A stretch of 64,000 nt of DNA from positions 613,908 through 677,907 of the forward strand of contig CAWFGE010000023.1 in assembly GCA_963815195.1 (NCBI GenBank), read 5' to 3'. Both the position numbers and the translations under genes were made by a program. This stretch comes from an uncultured Planctomycetaceae bacterium (lineage in GTDB: Bacteria; Planctomycetota; Planctomycetia; Planctomycetales; Planctomycetaceae). Under the pieces are notes generated by a model. The model ran no database searches. It saw nothing but the letters and a program-made list of their open reading frames with translations, and had not been told where the DNA came from. The stretch's first letter is position 1; each line of letters opens with the position of its first letter. Shown here one piece after another: positions 31,498-42,244 of the stretch.

Positions 31498-31670
31498 GTC
31501 GTCGATTTTACACCGTGGAGCGGCCTGGAGGCGGCCATACCCGGTAGACCGGTTAGGGGTACTCCTTCGAAGTACCACAGGGGTTACGAGGTTTTCCCGA
31601 TGGTAATACGCGCCGTTTTCGCCGATAACTATTGTGAGTGGGCCGCCCGCCCGACATAAATACTCGAAAA

Positions 31671-32892
31671 ATGCCAGACCAACTACTGCAAATACTGCTC
31701 GTGGAAGACAATCCGGGCGATGCGCTCCTGGTACAGGAGATGCTGCTTGATGCGGACCCGGAGGGCTTCGAAGTGCACCGGGCCGAAACCCTGTTAGGGG
31801 CGCTGGACTCGATAGCGCAGCACGATGTCGACGTGATCGTGCTGGATCTGAATCTGCCGGACAGCATGGGGCTCGAGACGTTCACTTCGATGAAGACCCA
31901 TGCGCCCGGGACGCCGGTCGTACTTCTCACCGGCCACGACGACGACGGCCTCGCCTTGAAAGCGGTGGAGGCCGGTGCGCAGGATTACCTCGTGAAAGAC
32001 CGTCTGGAGGGGGAGGCCCTGGTGCGGTCGCTACGTTACGCGGTGGTGCGCCAGCATAGCCGACCGCCCTTGGGAGCGGACGAGGGTGGGGCGAAAGGAA
32101 TGCTCATCGGAGTTCTCGGGACGAAGGGCGGCGTCGGCACGACTACCGTAGCGTGTCACTTGGCTCGTCAGTTGGGTCAACCCGCGGGAAAAGCGGGTGC
32201 TGCTTGCCGATCTCGACCTCAATGGCGGGTCCGCGGGCTTCCTGATGCAGGCCAAGAGCCCGTACACCATTCTGGATGCGGCCGACAACGTGCACCGGCT
32301 GGATGGCGGCTTCTGGGAATCGGTGGTTAGCAAGAGCGGCGACGGCGTGGACGTCATCACTTCTCCGGCGCTGATGGGGCAGATCGAAGCTCCGGCCCCG
32401 GCGCGTTTCCGCCATCTGCTTCGCTCGGCTGCCCGCTCCTATGACTTCGTGGTCGTGGACCTCGGCCGGATGGATTCCTTATCGCGAACTCTGACGCCCG
32501 AGATGAACCGGCTGTTTGTTCTTACCACGTCGGACCTCTCGGCGGTTCACGCGACGGGCCGGGTTCTGGAGTCTCTGAGAGACCTCGGTTTGGCCGAAGG
32601 AGTGGTGACGCTCGTCCAGAACCAGGCGTCGCGTTGGTCGACGGGAACGAGCGTCCTGAAAGCGGTGGTAAGTCGCGAGATTGGGGCGGCGTTGCCGGCG
32701 TGCGAGAGCGAATTGGCTGACGCGATGGCGAAGGGAGCGCTTCTCGGCGAGGGGAGCGCCTTTGGGAAACAGATTGCCAAACTGGCGGAAGTCCTGTCCG
32801 CGGCTGGAGGCGCGCCCCGGCGGGAACCCGGCTTCTCGTTGAAGAGACTGGGGCTGTTCAGTGGGCGCGAGGCCCCGGCGGCGAATAGCTAG
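31671..32892 (+). CDS. Receiver + CpaE/MinD-like ATPase, paralog 1 (frameshift near 32185)
   Basis: ILLVEDNPGD…LDLNLPD…DYLVK; deviant Walker A KGGVGTTT; VLLADLD; YDFVVVDL. Confidence 0.85.
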
Positions 32893-32911
32893 AGGAGGAG
32901 TTGTGCGTTCC

Positions 32912-34093
32912 ATGGACAGAGTGAATGTACTGCTCATCGAGGACGACGCCGAAGAGGTTGCTCTTCTGCGGGAGGCGCTTGACAAGGAATCGGCTCCCCC
33001 GTTTTCGGTTCATTGGTCGGGTCTCCTGGAGATGGGGTTGGAACGGCTTGCCCGCGCCCGCTACGAAATCGTATTGCTGGACCTGTCGCTGCCGGACTCG
33101 TTTGGCCTGGAAGCCTTTGCGAGATTGCTGAGGGTGGCGCCGAATATTCCGGTGATCGTCCTGGGCGGCGCCGGCGAGGAGTCTCTTCTCTTGCGGGCGG
33201 TCCGCGCCGGGGCCGAGGACTACATCGTGAAAGGCGCTAAGGGCGCGGAGGGGCTGGCACGCGCGGTACGATGTGCGCTCGAGCGCCGGGTTCGCCGCGT
33301 GGCCGGGTCGCAACGCATAGTCCGCGGTCGCCGCCGGAAAGCACGGACAATTGGCTTCATCGGGGGCAAGGGCGGCGTCGGAACCACCACGGTGGCGCTC
33401 AACGTCGGGGCGGCGCTCGCGGCCGGCAAGCGCAAGACGGTGGTTGCTGAAATCCGGGGCTACCATGGGACGGTGGCTCAAAACCTCAAGCGCGTCTCCG
33501 TGCACGGAAATCTCTCGGCTCTCTTGGGACTGACGCCAGAGGCGATCAATGAAGTCGAAATCAACGCCCGCCTGGCTCGGTATTCGTCGGAACTGAGTCT
33601 GCTCTGCGGCCCGCAACGCGCTTCGGAAACGAGGCCATGTACAGCCTCGCATGTCCGGTCCGTCATCGAAGGGCTCAAGGGCATGGCGGAGTTCCTCGTG
33701 TTGGACCTCCCTCCCGAACCATGCGAAGCCATCCGCGAGGCAGCCCGCCAGGCGGATTTCATCGGCCTCGTGGTGGACAGGGAAGAGACCTGCGTGGCCT
33801 CTGCCCGTTTGATGGCGGACCATCTTCGGTCGTGGAAAACCGAAGCTCTCATAGGGCTCGTTGTCGTTCATCGCTCCCCTTTGGCTTGTCCGGTGGAACT
33901 GGAGGTCCTGGAGCGAGAACTGCAACTCGAAACGATGGAATTGATCCCGCCGGCCGCTGACTCATGCGTCATGGCCGCCAGCGCCGGCGTGCCGCTGGTC
34001 GAAGCCTACGGGGAAACACTCGTCAGCGCGAGTCTACAGGAACTCGCCGCCAAGCTATCCTCGGATCCGATCGTGGTTCGCAGGAGCGCCTAA
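32912..34093 (+). CDS. Receiver + CpaE/MinD-like ATPase, paralog 2
   Basis: GAGGAG SD; VLLIEDD…LDLSLPD…DYIVK; GKGGVGTTT; FLVLDLP. Confidence 0.85.
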   Translation: MDRVNVLLIEDDAEEVALLREALDKESAPPFSVHWSGLLEMGLERLARARYEIVLLDLSLPDSFGLEAFARLLRVAPNIPVIVLGGAGEESLLLRAVRAGAEDYIVKGAKGAEGLARAVRCALERRVRRVAGSQRIVRGRRRKARTIGFIGGKGGVGTTTVALNVGAALAAGKRKTVVAEIRGYHGTVAQNLKRVSVHGNLSALLGLTPEAINEVEINARLARYSSELSLLCGPQRASETRPCTASHVRSVIEGLKGMAEFLVLDLPPEPCEAIREAARQADFIGLVVDREETCVASARLMADHLRSWKTEALIGLVVVHRSPLACPVELEVLERELQLETMELIPPAADSCVMAASAGVPLVEAYGETLVSASLQELAAKLSSDPIVVRRSA

Positions 34094-34530
34094 AGACCGG
34101 GATTCCATCGTCCTGCTCGTTGGACGGTCATTCGTGGGCGGTTTTCGAGCGTCTGTTCCCCATTCATAGTGGGGAGCGAATAGCCATTGAGCGAGACGGT
34201 CACGGTATTTGGCGCCCCGGCGGCGTCGCGCGTCCACGTCACCGACACGTTCTCCGGTTTTAGGCCGGGTGCGACAGAGCCGGCGCCCGCGGCGGGTTCG
34301 GCCATGCCGTAGGCCACCACATTTTGCACCTTTCGAACAAACCGGTAGGAAGGTTCGTCGAATTCCGCCATGGCTGCGTAGCGCGCTCCGCTTCTCACGG
34401 CGCTGCTGAGTTGGTTGAGAACCAGCATCGAAATACTCAACTGGACCATTCCAACGAATAGCACCGCGAGCACCGAGAAACCGAGCGCAAATTCAATCAG
34501 GCCGCTGCCCCGGCGGGATGGTCTGGTCAT
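34090..34530 (-). CDS. TadE/TadG-family pseudopilin
   Basis: RRG|SGLIEFAL prepilin-like motif, TM segment, AVRSGARYA. Confidence 0.85.
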   Translation of the reverse strand: MTRPSRRGSGLIEFALGFSVLAVLFVGMVQLSISMLVLNQLSSAVRSGARYAAMAEFDEPSYRFVRKVQNVVAYGMAEPAAGAGSVAPGLKPENVSVTWTRDAAGAPNTVTVSLNGYSLPTMNGEQTLENRPRMTVQRAGRWNPGL

Positions 34531-35408
34531 TCGGAGAGCCTCACTTCGTACAGTCCGGACGGCCCGGCCCCGTTCCGGCTGGCATTGAGCACCGGGGACG
34601 AGCCTACGTAGATTCCGGTGCATTCGCCGGTGACGGAGGCGTCCGCTGGTACAAGCAGGGTGGCATACCCGAGGGAACCGGCTGCGGAATTTTGACTCTT
34701 GACTTCGGCCGTCAGTATCCTTTGCCCATTGCCTTGCCGGATGTAGCGGGAATAGTCATCCGCGGCGGCGTCGGTGTCGTGACGCAAAAGAACTGCCAGG
34801 GCCGCTCCGCACTTACCGGCGGACTCCGCCTGGATCGGGACGGGCTGTCCCGGCGCAAAGCCGAACCCGGCCGCGGTGGCTTCCGGGGCGACGATCGAAT
34901 ACCTCAGCACGGTCCGGCGCCCCGGCCCGAGACGAACCTGCCCGGCGATAGAGTGCACGACGACACGTTGGGCCGCGGGCGCGGTGGGTACTATTGGCAG
35001 GAAGAAGAGTTTCGCCTTGGCAGCAACGGCAACCTCAACGAAACGCTGCCCCGAAGCTTGCGCCGGTGACACCTGCCAAGCCGCTTCCGGATCCGTCCGG
35101 AATCGAAAGCGGAGGTCGTTCACCTCGTCGGTGCTTACCGAAAACCATTCGCAGTGCCGCCGGCGCGCTCCGGCGCTTCGGGCCCGCTCCAACCCCTCGG
35201 CTGTGCCGTCGAGTTCTCGGGCGGCATTGAGCGCGACTTCATCGGCCATCGCCTGTAACTCGCCTTGTACCAGATAGATATGGCTAAAATCTATACCAGC
35301 GCCTAAGGTCAGTACGGTGACTCCCATGGCCACCAGAGTCAGCAGAAGGCCGAAACCGGACTGACTCCGTCGCGGACCAATACTCGCTGTGCATGGGATG
35401 CGCGCCAT
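34527..35408 (-). CDS. TadG-like pilus assembly protein (Tad N-terminal domain)
   Basis: RRSQSG|FGLL…GAGIDFS…ELQAMADEVALNAA; 4-bp overlap with the tadE-like gene. Confidence 0.78.
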   Translation of the reverse strand: MARIPCTASIGPRRSQSGFGLLLTLVAMGVTVLTLGAGIDFSHIYLVQGELQAMADEVALNAARELDGTAEGLERARSAGARRRHCEWFSVSTDEVNDLRFRFRTDPEAAWQVSPAQASGQRFVEVAVAAKAKLFFLPIVPTAPAAQRVVVHSIAGQVRLGPGRRTVLRYSIVAPEATAAGFGFAPGQPVPIQAESAGKCGAALAVLLRHDTDAAADDYSRYIRQGNGQRILTAEVKSQNSAAGSLGYATLLVPADASVTGECTGIYVGSSPVLNASRNGAGPSGLYEVRLSE

Positions 35409-35484
35409 CTCGACCTGTCTCCAAAGAGATCGTCGGACAGGCGTCAACTCTTTAGGTGATCGGAGGACTGATATGGAAGGTGAG

Positions 35485-35561
35485 TGGTACGCCCGGCAAG
35501 ATTCGAACTTGCGACCTCTTGCTCCGGAGGCAAGCGCTCTATCCAACTGAGCTACGGGCGC
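35485..35561 (-). tRNA. tRNA-Arg (anticodon CCG)
   Basis: GCGCCCGTAGCTCAGTTGGATAGAGCGCTTGCCTCCGGAGCAAGAGGTCGCAAGTTCGAATCTTGCCGGGCGTACCA: 77 nt, canonical cloverleaf, encoded CCA. Confidence 0.98.
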
Positions 35562-38146: not shown

Positions 38147-39376
38147 CTAGCCTTCAAATTCTATCTCGAGGGCGGCGCCATCCGGTAGGCCTTGAGTGGT
38201 CAGGAGTGTGCAGCCACGCACGTTGGCAAGCTCGTCCAAAGTTGGATTGTGCGGGATGCCGCTGTAGGTATCGGGGAAGGTGGAAACGGCCACCCGGCGT
38301 TCGCGGCCACCGGGAACGGGGAGCGGCAGAATCTCGTCCAGCAGTTCGGCATCGGGTGTTCCGTTGTGGCTGCCGTGGTGGCTCACCTTGAGAAAGTGGA
38401 CGGGTGAGAGCGCCCCGGTTTTGTTCATCTGCTTCCAACTGCGAACCTCGGCGTCGCCGGGGAATAGAAGCTTCCAACCGCGCCACTTGAGGCAGAAGAC
38501 GATGCTCGAGTTGTTGGCGGCTTTATCGATTGCAAGGAGATTGTCGACATAGCCGGACCGCCGCAGTGCCACCAGATTGTAGAAGGCGCCGGCGTCCACA
38601 CCCGCGGGCGGCGTAACTTCGACCCCGTCCCGCCCCGGAGCGAGACCGGGCGCGTCGCCGAAGGCCATCGGCCGGAACTGCCCGTAGTATTCGCTTGCAT
38701 CCTCTTCAGGCGCCCATATCTCAAACTCCGCCTCTCGAAACGGATGCGTGCCAGCGAGGTCGAAGGTGTCTGTCCCCTTCGAGCGGTGGACGTAGTGGGT
38801 GTGGCCGGCGCTGGCCAAGTGGCGGATGTATTCGACGCAATCCGCGGTCCGCGAGGGGCTGAGGTCTCCGGCGGCGGACTTAGCCAGGAATCGGTTGTTG
38901 TTGCGGAGCAGCACCTCGATTGCCTCTGGGACCGGCTCTTGCGAGGCGTTAAGCGATTTCTGTGTTAGGAAGAAGGCATCGATCGCCTCGCCTAGTTTTT
39001 TCTTCGCTTCGGGGTGGGTGTCATAGTAATCCGGATCGGACGACGCTGGCAACCACACGTGCCGCGGACTAAGCTTGGCCGCCAGATCGACGCCCGCGAA
39101 GCGATTCTCCGCGGCCCACAGCAGACCCTGCACATGGTCCATGTGCTCGTGGGTGGCGATATAGAGGTCGAGGGGTTGGCCGTCCAGAATGCGCAGGATA
39201 TCCTCAAAGACCGGTGTGAAGACTTCGTCCTCGCCGCCCTCCTTCGAGGCCGCGTTGCCGACGTCGATCAAAATGTGGCGCATCCGCGGGACGCCCGCTT
39301 CGTCCTGGTCCGGTACGGAGACCAGCACGCCGTCGCCGAAGCGCACGTTGTAAAGCCGCACGGTCAGCTTGTTCAT
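38147..39376 (-). CDS. ComEC/Rec2-like MBL-fold metallo-hydrolase, cytoplasmic
   Basis: YNVRFGDG, ILIDVG, THEHMDH, NNSSIVF, LLFPGDA, LKVSHHGSHN; no signal peptide or TM. Confidence 0.9.
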   Translation of the reverse strand: MNKLTVRLYNVRFGDGVLVSVPDQDEAGVPRMRHILIDVGNAASKEGGEDEVFTPVFEDILRILDGQPLDLYIATHEHMDHVQGLLWAAENRFAGVDLAAKLSPRHVWLPASSDPDYYDTHPEAKKKLGEAIDAFFLTQKSLNASQEPVPEAIEVLLRNNNRFLAKSAAGDLSPSRTADCVEYIRHLASAGHTHYVHRSKGTDTFDLAGTHPFREAEFEIWAPEEDASEYYGQFRPMAFGDAPGLAPGRDGVEVTPPAGVDAGAFYNLVALRRSGYVDNLLAIDKAANNSSIVFCLKWRGWKLLFPGDAEVRSWKQMNKTGALSPVHFLKVSHHGSHNGTPDAELLDEILPLPVPGGRERRVAVSTFPDTYSGIPHNPTLDELANVRGCTLLTTQGLPDGAALEIEFEG

Positions 39377-41050
39377 GCCGGCCCCCCGCCGCAGATGTGA
39401 AGCATCCGCGCCGACCGCTTGACTCGCAGCAGGTCTCCGGAAACCTCGGCGAAGGGAATCTGTCGGTTCGGCTTTCCAATCGAGCCGATCGCTTCCCCGC
39501 CGATTCGGAGCAAACCGTCGGAATACAGACTGAGAAGCATCGCGCTACGGTCTCCGGCTCCCCGATTCCGGGATGAATCAGAGGTCAGCAACGCTCGCAC
39601 AGTCTTCTTCTCCCAGTTGATGGCGAGTGTCATGCCGACGGTGATCTGACGGCGTTCCGGTAGTCCGCGCATGGCCGGGTTCTGCTCCTCCGCGTCCCAG
39701 GAAACCTTCAGGATGCACTCACGAATGTTTTCGGTATGTTCCTTGCCGAGCCAGTACTGCTTGGTCACGTCGAGTCGCGGACGAACCCACAGAGAGAGCT
39801 CTTCCGGAATACCCAGCAAATCCCGGTATGTGTTGACGAAGGTGTAAGCGGCCCAATCGCTCTTGATCAGCATTGGGAGGTCCACCTGCGACAGCGCCGC
39901 ATTCAGTTTGGCGATCTGTTTCGGATCCGGGATGACGTTCAGTTCGTTCGCGCTCTTAACCATCGCGCGGCGCTCGAACTCCTTGGCGATCCACTCACGC
40001 TCCTCGGCGAACGCTGGATGGAACGCTTCGTCGGACGCGGTGATCGCCCGCCCGTAGTCGGCGAACGAGATCTCGCCCGGAGGCAGATAATCGAGCGCCC
40101 GAAGGACCATCCGTTTGAACTGCTCGCTGGCGACGAACAGAGCCTTGCCCGACGACCAATCCGGGTTCGCGGCCTTGCGTTGCTCGTGCATCCGCACCAT
40201 CACCGAGTAGAGCGCGCCGCTGAGAATCTCGCTGAGTTCATGGGGCGCCCAGCGGGCCCCTCCCGATTCGGGCAAGCGGTTGTCGTTGAGCAGAGCCCGC
40301 AGCGGGCGCAGTTGGCCGCTGGCATGCCGGCCGGCCCCGAACTCCTCGGCGATCGAACTGAACGCAGTCGGGTTCGCGATGGAGCCGCCGGTCTGGTCGA
40401 GAACCGTCTGCCGCAGCGCCCGGCTCCGGAAGGAGGTAAGCACCGCCGTCAGGTCCGCCACCGACTCATGCAACGCCAAGGACTGCGGACTGACGGCGTT
40501 GTAGAGATCCGGCGCGATTCCATCGAGGATGGCGTGCCCGGTTTCGTGAGCGACGATGTCGTGCGAGAGGCTGGTGTAGATCTCCGTCCCCTCAGCCCTG
40601 GCCGACAGGAAGTGAAAGAACTGGAGGCTGTGGGAATCGCGTTCGTAGTAAGCGTTGGCCCACTTTCCGGCGCGGGGAACCACCAAGCAGACTGCTGGCG
40701 CATCGAAGCCCCAGGTCAGGCGTCTCCCGAGCGTGTCGGGCTCCTCGAACATTTCCATCGTCTTGCGGACTGTGGCGAAGGCGTTGACCTGGATAAACGC
40801 GTCCGAGAGCGGATCAATCGGTTCGTCCAGAAGGTAAGAGGCCTTCTTGCCATCGGCCGCTGGAGCCTGGAAGCTCGCTCCCGGTCGCAGTCTGCCGTCG
40901 TCGTCGAAGTCGAGAACCGCAATCCGTTCCGTAACCGGACCGTCGAGGAAGAACTCTTCTTCGATGCGTGACCGATTCGGTGATGTCGGGCATTCCCTTG
41001 GCCAGAGTGACCATCTGGTCCTGGATCATGGCCGGGATTTGGATCTTCAT
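39373..41050 (-). CDS. M4/M36 (thermolysin/fungalysin-like) gluzincin metallopeptidase, cytoplasmic (frameshift near 40968)
   Basis: NAYY, SHDIVAHETGHAILDG, ALHESVADL, PHELS; N-terminus MKIQIPAMIQD (41050) joins …FLDGPVTERIAVLDFD… in the frame of ORF 39373-40758. Confidence 0.85.
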
Positions 41051-41062
41051 GACGCTCTGCCG

Positions 41063-42085
41063 TTAGCGAGTGACGCGGATGCTGTAGCTGCCCACGCCGC
41101 CGCTCTGGTTGAAGTGACGGATCTGAACGAAGTACTCGCCGGGGCTCAAGTCAGCCACAATCTTCGAGTTTCTGCCAATGCCCCCATCGTCGTCTTCGGC
41201 GACTACTTGTGTCTGGCTGTTCGGGCCGAAAAGCTTCATTACGACATCCGTCTCCCCGCCCGTTTCGATGGTGTGCCGGGCCGCTTGGCCGACGGTGAAC
41301 TTGTATAGATCTTCTTCTCCGGGCGCTCCGATACTGGCTGAGACGCCTGCCGTCTCGATGACATCGAGTTCGGTCGCCTCCACCGCTGGAGCCGCCACGG
41401 CCGGGATACGCTTCAGCGCTCTTGATGAAGGCAATGTCCATTTGTGATACGTCGGAATTGCCATGAGTGGCTACGCCATTCAATGTCCAGCGGGCCGGAA
41501 ACTCGTAGAGCATGATGGAGTCCGGATCGAACCGGGTTCCTTTGATTTGGTCAACGCCGTACTTCTCCAGAACGTTGTGCCGGATCTGGGCCTCGGTCCA
41601 ATTGTTGGGCGGCCCGCTAAGATCGCGAATGACTTCCGTCTCGTTCCACTGAATGCCGCCATCGGGGTTCTGATGCTCGTGTCCCAGGCCGATCGCATGC
41701 CCGAACTCGTGGGTCGGCGTTCCGCGGTCCAGGAAGCCCGAGGTTAAGGGTCGCCTGGTTCGCCGGAATCTGGGTGGCGTCGGTGCCGACCCACGACCAG
41801 GCGCCGTCGATCGAATCGAACGTGATGCGGATATCGGCGTCGGGATGGTCCCCGAAATCGAACTTCAGATTGGCATGCGCCGTCCAGCGGGCCGCTTCCT
41901 CCATGTACCTGCGCCTTTTGGTCCGAGTTCCCCTCCAGGAAGCGGACTTTGAGAGTCGAACCATTGACCCACCGCTTGCGGAACTCGAATACCGCGCTTA
42001 GGCGGCCGCCGATCGATATCATGCGCCGGGGCCGGTTCAGATCAGCCGGCAGGACGCGGTCGAAACAGAGTCTGGGTGCGGACAT
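41063..42085 (-). CDS. Astacin-like (M12A) metzincin peptidase with C-terminal PPC-like domain (about four indels)
   Basis: GAGGAGG SD; W.NGSTLKVRF, IRITF…GAWSWVG, HEFGHAIGLGHEH, Met-turn SIMLY; PPC-like EEDLYKF…DDDGG…PGEYFVQI. Confidence 0.85.
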
Positions 42086-42244
42086 TGTGAGCCTCCTCTA
42101 AGTTGCTGGTTTCCAGTTGGTGCTGCTGCACACGAGAGTAAGGCAATTTCCGAGGAATTACAAGAGTTATGACTGCACTCAAGGTTCCGGAGAAACCTGA
42201 ACCGTTGTACGAGATGAAATGCAAGCCGCGAGAAACCATGATCG

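Follow-up and report, generated by a model that had tools for sequence, protein, structure and literature searches.

A conserved gene pair of a gluzincin zinc protease and a ComEC-fold hydrolase with a candidate portable docking peptide

We analyzed a three-gene operon in a 64,000-nucleotide stretch of contig CAWFGE010000023.1 (assembly GCA_963815195.1, binned as an uncultured Planctomycetaceae bacterium; positions 613,908 to 677,907), which is referred to as the window throughout. The operon encodes a myroilysin-type astacin (gene 1), a gluzincin zinc protease of the M4/M36 fold (gene 2), and a stand-alone metallo-beta-lactamase (MBL) hydrolase with a ComEC fold (gene 3). Its core is two genes, the gluzincin directly upstream of the MBL, with the astacin being accessory. 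This module is real, conserved, and undescribed in the literature searched, and its unusual feature is a portable peptide predicted to dock. Building on the observed linkage, co-evolution, folds, intact catalytic residues, and capture of the docking peptide as a tail, we propose with moderate confidence that it is a cytoplasmic protease-effector module, a metalloprotease variant of the protease-activated MBL pro-nuclease modules, whose established partners are trypsin, caspase, and S8 proteases.

Linkage was examined in two best-match sets, not random samples, comprising the best 80 of 566 gluzincin loci from genomes and the best 80 of 250 MBL loci from metagenomes. Six of the genome loci end too soon; the MBL lies directly downstream of the gluzincin in 60 of the other 74 (59 recognized by script plus the frameshifted locus L062), while 11 are the tail forms described below, one has a divergent MBL, and two have neither. 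Among the metagenome loci, the gluzincin is directly upstream of the MBL in all 72 with room for it, the remaining eight having no room. The linkage between the two genes is far beyond chance. Among 300 evenly drawn genomes from the phylum of the bin, 13 contained the gluzincin, and 9 of these had the MBL directly downstream. A further 300, drawn evenly from the phylum of L001, a locus in an Acidobacteria metagenome-assembled genome (MAG) that carries an intact orthologous operon, yielded no member of the close clade.

The two proteins have also evolved together. Across 82 pairs, gluzincin and MBL trees were correlated (Mantel r of 0.79, with 0 of 999 permutations as high), and of 37 well-supported splits, 31 were common to both trees and none were in conflict, although the trees do not follow taxonomy. 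Two trees were built with tails trimmed, one of 95 rows and one of 313 rows, the latter leaving out proteins outside 500 to 660 amino acids (aa) or without a complete C-terminus. A gene neighborhood survey for conserved linkage and patchy distribution had been suggested in the original prediction, which was made from the window sequence; the pair proved to be linked across at least 10 phyla, with a very patchy distribution. Co-occurrence, congruent trees, and the predicted complex described below all support a direct partnership of gluzincin and MBL.

The astacin behaves differently. Only 17 of the 80 genome loci and 4 of the 80 metagenome loci have it as an adjacent gene, three of those four being near-duplicates of loci in the genome set; it lies upstream at three loci and downstream at all others. 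In an even sample of 300 genomes, none of nine myroilysin-type genes adjoined a gluzincin. Of the coupled operon originally proposed, the gluzincin-MBL pair was conserved, whereas a fixed three-gene system is not supported. The slot of the astacin is also taken by patatin, alpha/beta-hydrolases, or S8 proteases; a scan of 117 flanking, mostly co-oriented proteins found nine patatins, three Tle1-like, and three LCAT-like proteins, and further flanking genes encoded S8, papain, and second MBLs.

Gene 2 matches no family in Pfam, NCBIfam, or PADLOC, against all of which the proteins were scanned. However, the model of its homologue L009 fits M36 and thermolysin structures (Z scores of 21 to 22) from residue 1 to approximately residue 370, and because this match to the mature fold begins at residue 1, the protein has no propeptide. 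An extra C-terminal region of approximately 170 aa (about residues 375 to 545) follows. Gene 2 has the fold, the HExxH-plus-Glu zinc site (HExxH...E-xxx-D), the edge strand, the Arg, and the His in common with thermolysin (M4) and fungalysin (M36), and all 82 gluzincins compared keep the zinc ligands, catalytic Glu, N-A-x-Y edge strand, and Arg unchanged, while 80 of them keep the His. Unlike these families, it has no family hidden Markov model match, neither signal nor propeptide, the extra C-terminal region, and only 12 to 16% identity to solved members. Fold and zinc motif together bear out its earlier identification as an M4/M36-like gluzincin. The family is large, with 1,394 clusters at 50% identity (E up to 1e-30). 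The name "serine protease family protein" carried by its nearest ESM Atlas clusters is an automatic label, which we rejected as contradicted by fold and motifs. One ESM Atlas cluster holds 76 M36/M4-like proteins of approximately 500 aa, 88% of them viral (Uroviricota), which are possible phage-encoded relatives or mimics.

Gene 3 carries the motifs THEHMDH, GDA, and KVSHHGS, and its best fold match is the ComEC MBL domain 9ic4 (Z score of 23.2; root mean square deviation of 3.0), with 254 of its 409 residues aligning to the 266-aa ComEC domain. The approximately 150 residues beyond this fold lie in two insertions, including a helical insertion. The MBL metal ligands are invariant in 82 of 82 proteins, and these intact ligands and the fold match agree with the stand-alone ComEC-type hydrolase originally recognized here. 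Directly upstream of the disordered linker is a candidate scissile stretch, F-x-P-x-A-L/F-G, at which the protein might be cleaved. Weak partial matches to the Avs1a, Lamassu-MBL, and DRT-MBL models were below the cut-off where one exists; the score against the Avs1a model was 42 bits for a cut-off of 420, and gene 3 was also far below the 6A-MBL cut-off. We regard gene 3 as a putative gated pro-nuclease.

The linker is followed by a motif found, under a strict pattern, in 117 of 143 MBL open reading frames (ORFs), through which the MBL is predicted to bind an exosite of the gluzincin. Complex modeling, another step suggested at the outset, gave the gluzincin-MBL pair of L001 a score of 0.81 across three runs, versus 0.00 for the best control. 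Purpose-made alignments were supplied. Of 157 solved complexes, 116 attain the mark for this score, as do 2 of 215 mismatched pairs. The runs had at least 81% of contacts in common, with a predicted local distance difference test score (pLDDT) of at least 80 for the partner. The best predicted contacts join MBL residues 261 to 275 to gluzincin residues 35 to 46 and 122 to 141, a conserved part of the N-terminal beta domain, and MBL residues 237 to 241, equivalent to the linker region of gene 3, and the gluzincin loop 127 to 130, at the cleft edge, are also within the predicted interface. Interface columns were conserved at 0.80 and 0.74, compared with an average of 0.58. Recall of a known complex is unlikely because searches turned up no close solved relative for either chain.

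At loci without the MBL, the gluzincin itself ends in the docking motif (12 loci; 16 of 268 database proteins). These tail forms make up 28 of 313 proteins and require 10 changes on the tree, at least eight of which are forced by well-supported branches. Locus L054, in which S8 follows a tail form, groups as sister to L064 with its gluzincin, MBL, and S8; the L054 DNA aligns with the L064 MBL motif region and from there with the start of S8. Two tails of the window's clade have linker letters in common with a close MBL. Because of these matches, the sequences indicate that the tails derive from the MBL through repeated deletions that removed it on either side of the motif. The tail linker is 17 to 40 residues long and disordered, and in an AlphaFold model of a tail form, the motif reaches a pLDDT of approximately 90 behind a linker below 50. 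No close-clade MBL was found elsewhere in any of the six tail genomes searched, which are incomplete MAGs. The tails retain the motif and lack the candidate cut site, which argues that the ligand is required by the protease, whether for latency or for stability. At all 12 tail loci with context, the next gene encodes another protease (10 astacins, one S8, and one gluzincin); these neighbors link two proteases functionally, without giving the direction. Among 8,349 locus ORFs, one shadow frame aside, the docking motif was absent from third-gene partners.

Gene 1 consists of a short pro-segment with a conserved Cys at residue 7, a catalytic domain, and a C-terminal PPC domain that scores above the Pfam cut-off. 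Its family profile matches myroilysin (5gwd) at an E value of 6e-87, the HExxHxxGxxH motif, the Met-turn, and the Cys-bearing pro-segment of myroilysin-type M12A enzymes are all present, and the Cys is kept in 108 of 120 homologues. The astacin-like protease with PPC domain was thus correctly called, the one correction being this short pro-segment. Myroilysin is described as using a cysteine switch (PMC9848320), and the pro-segment Cys of gene 1 would likewise ligate zinc. We therefore see gene 1 as a latent enzyme of the cysteine-switch type, more likely a target than an initiator. Unlike myroilysin and Streptomyces SCO6992 (AbsR1), it has no signal peptide by proxy, carries a PPC domain, and has been recruited to a gluzincin operon. 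The NCBIfam model NF050131 ("beta-glucuronidase AbsR1") spans residues 56 to 338 of gene 1 at 142 bits, against a cut-off of 650. The model encompasses a protease of the myroilysin type with a PPC domain. SCO6992, encoded next to the large ATP-binding LuxR regulator SCO6993, may be a protease that is latent or narrow in specificity.

All three proteins had been predicted to be cytoplasmic, without signal peptides, and a hydropathy proxy (used in place of SignalP) supports this for the window and for the homologues. Gene 1 scored 1.34 and gene 3 scored 1.25, compared with 2.3 to 3.0 for four secreted-looking neighbors. A score of 1.8 was exceeded by 7 of 241 gluzincins, 2 of 120 astacins, and 11 of 119 MBLs, where it always reflected the first beta-strand.

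From these observations we infer a mechanism, in which cleavage, DNase activity, latency, the direction of the cascade, and a role in defense or cell death are the interpretive steps. Gluzincin and MBL would be co-translated and form a latent complex, with the MBL motif seated on the hydrophobic exosite of the N-terminal beta domain of the protease, where it would replace the absent propeptide while holding the gating linker of the MBL at the cleft edge. Upon a trigger, the gluzincin would cleave the linker, likely on the N-terminal side of a hydrophobic residue, and the cut would open a ComEC-type phosphodiesterase, most likely a DNase, such that the cell is killed or arrested. The third gene would supply an interchangeable extra latent hydrolase; in the window this is the cysteine-switch myroilysin, probably matured by the gluzincin, and it would remain as the output once the MBL is lost. 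The gluzincin is favored as the upstream component because most loci are without a second protease and because the astacin is itself a zymogen. A broader formulation, which we hold tentatively and think rather less probable than not, is that of an undescribed intracellular zinc-protease death or immunity cascade, whose propeptide-less thermolysin-like initiator is kept latent by a portable docking peptide (acting in trans from its nuclease substrate and in cis after the loss of the nuclease) and matures interchangeable zymogen effectors (DNase, cysteine-switch astacin, S8, and lipases).

Several observations weigh against a protease-activated nuclease module. Sister clades occurred in 20 of the 300 genomes from the L001 phylum, with the MBL adjacent at only 10 of 23 loci. 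The predicted contacts involve the exosite and cleft edge, not the zinc ligands. The tail loci with known context trace to no more than about four lineages, and some probably share ancestry. The second-best fold match of the MBL is the phosphorylcholine esterase Pce (Z score of 20.4), and because of this match and the frequent lipases among the neighbors, the substrate may not be DNA. SCO6992, the nearest tested relative of gene 1, was inactive on milk and azocasein and was reported as a beta-glucuronidase in the account consulted (PMC9705864). No sensor domain is conserved in the operon. Across 40 long loci, 136 of the 180 near genes called and 140 of the 154 far genes were compared; PADLOC models matched 7 of the former and 9 of the latter, which is no enrichment, and the defense-island context once expected for the locus was not found.

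Other arrangements of the same parts were considered. The original order ran from astacin to gluzincin to MBL, and in a version of it the astacin (or an S8 protease) is the initiator, which cuts the disordered linker, frees the motif, and so activates gluzincin and MBL. It would account for the second protease kept beside every tail form with context, the disordered tail linker would be open to cutting, an S8 is fused upstream of the gluzincin in a sister clade, and the cysteine switch or PPC domain could sense thiol status or calcium. We nevertheless consider it unlikely, since 63 of 80 genome loci are without an adjacent astacin and most without any second protease, myroilysin-type genes mostly stand alone, and the astacin, itself latent, needs its own pro-segment removed; the order as first drawn is not upheld by these data. 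If instead the gluzincin were the effector, in competition or turnover, the MBL motif would be its antidote or folding partner, and no activation of the MBL by cleavage would be involved. Such a protease-inhibitor pair would fit the retention of the motif in cis, minus the candidate cut site, upon each loss of the MBL, and protealysin offers a precedent, being described as an intracellular M4 protease with an inhibitor in its own operon (PMC9505478); gene 2 is likewise intracellular by proxy. The invariant metal ligands and two-insertion build of the MBL would be superfluous for a pure inhibitor, and we give this possibility a slightly lower standing, as improbable.

The least probable of these alternatives, to our judgment, is a metabolic or envelope role without any part in defense or death, in which the MBL, encoded beside lipases, is a regulated phosphodiesterase whose substrates are lipid or teichoic-acid-like head groups. 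It draws on the Pce match, the patatin, Tle1-like, and LCAT-like neighbors, and the absence of a defense context in the PADLOC comparison. The very patchy spread and the mismatch between tree and taxonomy are at odds with it, as is the lack of signal peptides, by proxy, in the lipase-type partners, and alpha/beta-hydrolases are themselves known protease-activated death effectors. We retain the cytoplasmic protease-effector module, with the gluzincin upstream, as our preferred explanation.

The MBL falls in a lineage of ComEC-fold proteins with insertions, and trypsin- and caspase-linked members of this lineage are described as protease-activated DNases that are cut in their two insertions (PMC12799240, PMC12642450). 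The original prediction had pointed to MBL-plus-protease pairings in anti-phage loci such as Avs1. As presented in PMC12799240, PMC12642450, and bioRxiv 10.1101/2025.09.03.673762, Avs1a/Avs1b, HamMAB, the Lamassu and DRT trypsin-MBL systems, and Canu likewise have a stand-alone ComEC-fold MBL with two insertions and a co-evolving adjacent protease, and in Canu the protease gene is upstream of the nuclease, as it is in the gluzincin-MBL pair. In contrast to these systems, the partner protease here belongs to the zinc gluzincins of clan MA and not to the trypsins, caspases, or S8 enzymes, no sensor is fused to it, and a discrete docking motif can move onto the protease. With a gluzincin partner and no sensor, the pair falls outside Avs1, HamMAB, and the trypsin-MBL systems (Clade 1), and with an upstream gene of M4/M36 fold and not of the caspase family, it falls outside Canu. 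The MBL motifs of the window's clade were absent from the MBL table of the Clade 1 source paper, a table that covers the serine-protease clade.

No named defense system in PADLOC or NCBIfam was matched; there is no model for either protease, the MBL gave its weak partial matches, and the models were unmatched as a system, in keeping with the initial impression that this is not a named system. PMC12642450 (Fig. 1B) places a "Clade 3" of MBLs beside S8 subtilisin-like proteases, as uncharacterized. Our sister clade is homologous to the window's clade over the whole MBL and the gluzincin catalytic domain (hhalign probabilities of 99.4 and 99.9), and it encodes S8-gluzincin fusions directly upstream of the homologous MBL, whereas the window operon contains no S8, the window's clade has no S8 fusion, and the Clade 3 text, in the part consulted, names S8 only. 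The sister clade probably corresponds to the S8-linked Clade 3. Metalloprotease terms are not mentioned in the main texts of PMC12799240, PMC12642450, or bioRxiv 10.1101/2025.09.03.673762. We found no description of the gluzincin-MBL pair in the literature searched, although supplementary figures of PMC12799240 and PMC12642450 may show such a partner; PMC7159879 and PMC12419801, considered as prior descriptions, concern other systems in the portions consulted.

The three co-oriented genes, the Shine-Dalgarno sequence, and all motifs first quoted are present in the window (Table 1), with a 12-nucleotide gap from the stop of gene 1 to the ATG of gene 2 and an ATGA overlap of genes 2 and 3 at 39376-39373. 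A promoter and terminator scan of the locus stayed at chance level.

Table 1. Features of the three-gene operon, in window positions
Feature	Position	Strand	Remarks
Shine-Dalgarno sequence GAGGAGG	42092..42098	(-)	6 nt 5' of the gene 1 ATG at 42085
Gene 1, myroilysin-type M12A (astacin) zymogen, accessory	41063..42085	(-)	Stop at 41063
HEFGHAIGLGHEH zinc motif of gene 1	41673..41711	(-)	From sequence
Met-turn SIMLY of gene 1	41519-41505	(-)	From sequence
Gene 2, M4/M36-fold gluzincin, ~555 aa, core gene	39373..41050	(-)	ATG at 41050
HETGH...HESVAD zinc-binding helices of gene 2	40453..40548	(-)	
Gene 3, ComEC-fold MBL hydrolase, 409 aa, intact, core gene	38147..39376	(-)	
Disordered linker of gene 3, residues 240-251, pLDDT <50	38624..38659	(-)	Just before docking motif
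Docking motif PPxGVDAGAFYNLxxxR, residues 256-272	38561..38611	(-)	End of second MBL insertion

Gene 3 is one intact frame, while gene 1 is divided into four reading-frame segments and gene 2 into two. Alignment to L001, which has an identical gene order, 71% DNA identity, and an intact 345-aa gene 1 product, located the breaks. All breaks were single-base gains, three in gene 1 (at approximately 41906, 41739, and 41392) and one in gene 2 (near 40969); three further, mutually compensating gains at 40696-40686 leave gene 2 with a single net frameshift. The broken segments contain no in-frame stops and are 67 to 80% identical to L001 throughout. These frameshifts are likely assembly errors because other genes of the contig segment change frame as well, 8 of 24 other testable ones including argG. 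Neither small shares of the reads from three DNA runs nor the public contigs aligned to the locus covered any of the break sites. An operon decaying in its own organism, with real frameshifts and a dead copy, would be consistent with a density (four net frameshifts plus the local triple in 3.9 kb) somewhat above the segment rate (11 in approximately 26 kb). The uniform single-base gains, the absence of in-frame stops, the preserved identity, and the equally broken housekeeping genes make decay improbable, and it would bear on the window copy alone, not on the family.

The last approximately 108 kb of the contig (from approximately 569,000 to the contig end), including the whole window, has a tetranucleotide signature sharply unlike the rest of the bin, and the switch point falls inside rpoD. 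This segment carries second copies of argG, argF, hflX, rph, rdgB, ispA, and moaE (41 to 51% identity), and for one flanking window protein the nearest clusters are from Acidobacteriota. A planctomycete-type motif, which we take to be that of the DUF1559 family, is found on 14 of the 25 contigs of the bin. We read this as a chimeric contig, in which an Acidobacteria-like segment from a second, probably low-coverage organism was misjoined to a planctomycete-type contig. Since the segment appears foreign to the bin, findings from the window should not be assigned to the taxon of the bin. For the same reason, a comparison with same-genus genomes for an empty site, which gave no match, is void, and a search of 60 relatives does not speak to the kin of the true host.

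Further arrangements were observed around homologous loci. S8-gluzincin fusions of approximately 1,200 aa occur with an adjacent MBL (L172, L188, and L204-L206) and, at nine loci, without one (L190-L196, L058:1277-4867, and L066), and a third gluzincin subfamily, with open frames of 500 to 640 aa, has no MBL nearby (L198-L203 and L176). Stacked modules (L099:1120-5678, L042:9914-15830, L073:9851-13756, and L026:9914-21591) take several forms: a tail gluzincin preceding another gluzincin with an MBL; gluzincins in tandem, with S8 nearby, in a Bathyarchaeota MAG; and two gluzincin-MBL pairs, a patatin, and a third gluzincin in one run. At L068:9874-12834, gluzincin and MBL share one ORF, as either a true fusion or an assembly indel. 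Candidate sensors of the DUF4062-AAA-TPR, TIR-NACHT-FGE, and WD40-Roc-TIR types (STAND-type or TIR-bearing) lie downstream of a few modules (L115:4453-6381, L119:2863-6027, L183:9974-12808, and L069:13607-16486) and recur too rarely to be called. Elsewhere in the window (31638-35561), two receiver-domain ParA/CpaE-like genes, the first apparently frameshifted, stand beside tRNA-Arg(CCG); their neighbors are presumably TadE/TadG-like genes, a label taken from translations.

In 2025, serine and cysteine proteases were shown to gate MBL nucleases, as described in PMC12799240 and PMC12642450. The module described here would extend this gating of MBL pro-nucleases to a large zinc metalloprotease family that has no Pfam model. 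If true, the broader cascade formulation would bring a fourth class of protease to the MBL pro-nucleases, as a metalloprotease counterpart to the scheme of initiator caspase, executioner, and DNase. The module further raises the possibility that, in the S8-linked clade, the fused gluzincin is the conserved partner. The docking motif offers a handle on how such pairs recognize each other and stay silent, and L001 provides an intact three-gene copy for experimental work. The repeated capture of the tail may represent a natural experiment, indicating that the protease needs the peptide even when the nuclease is gone.

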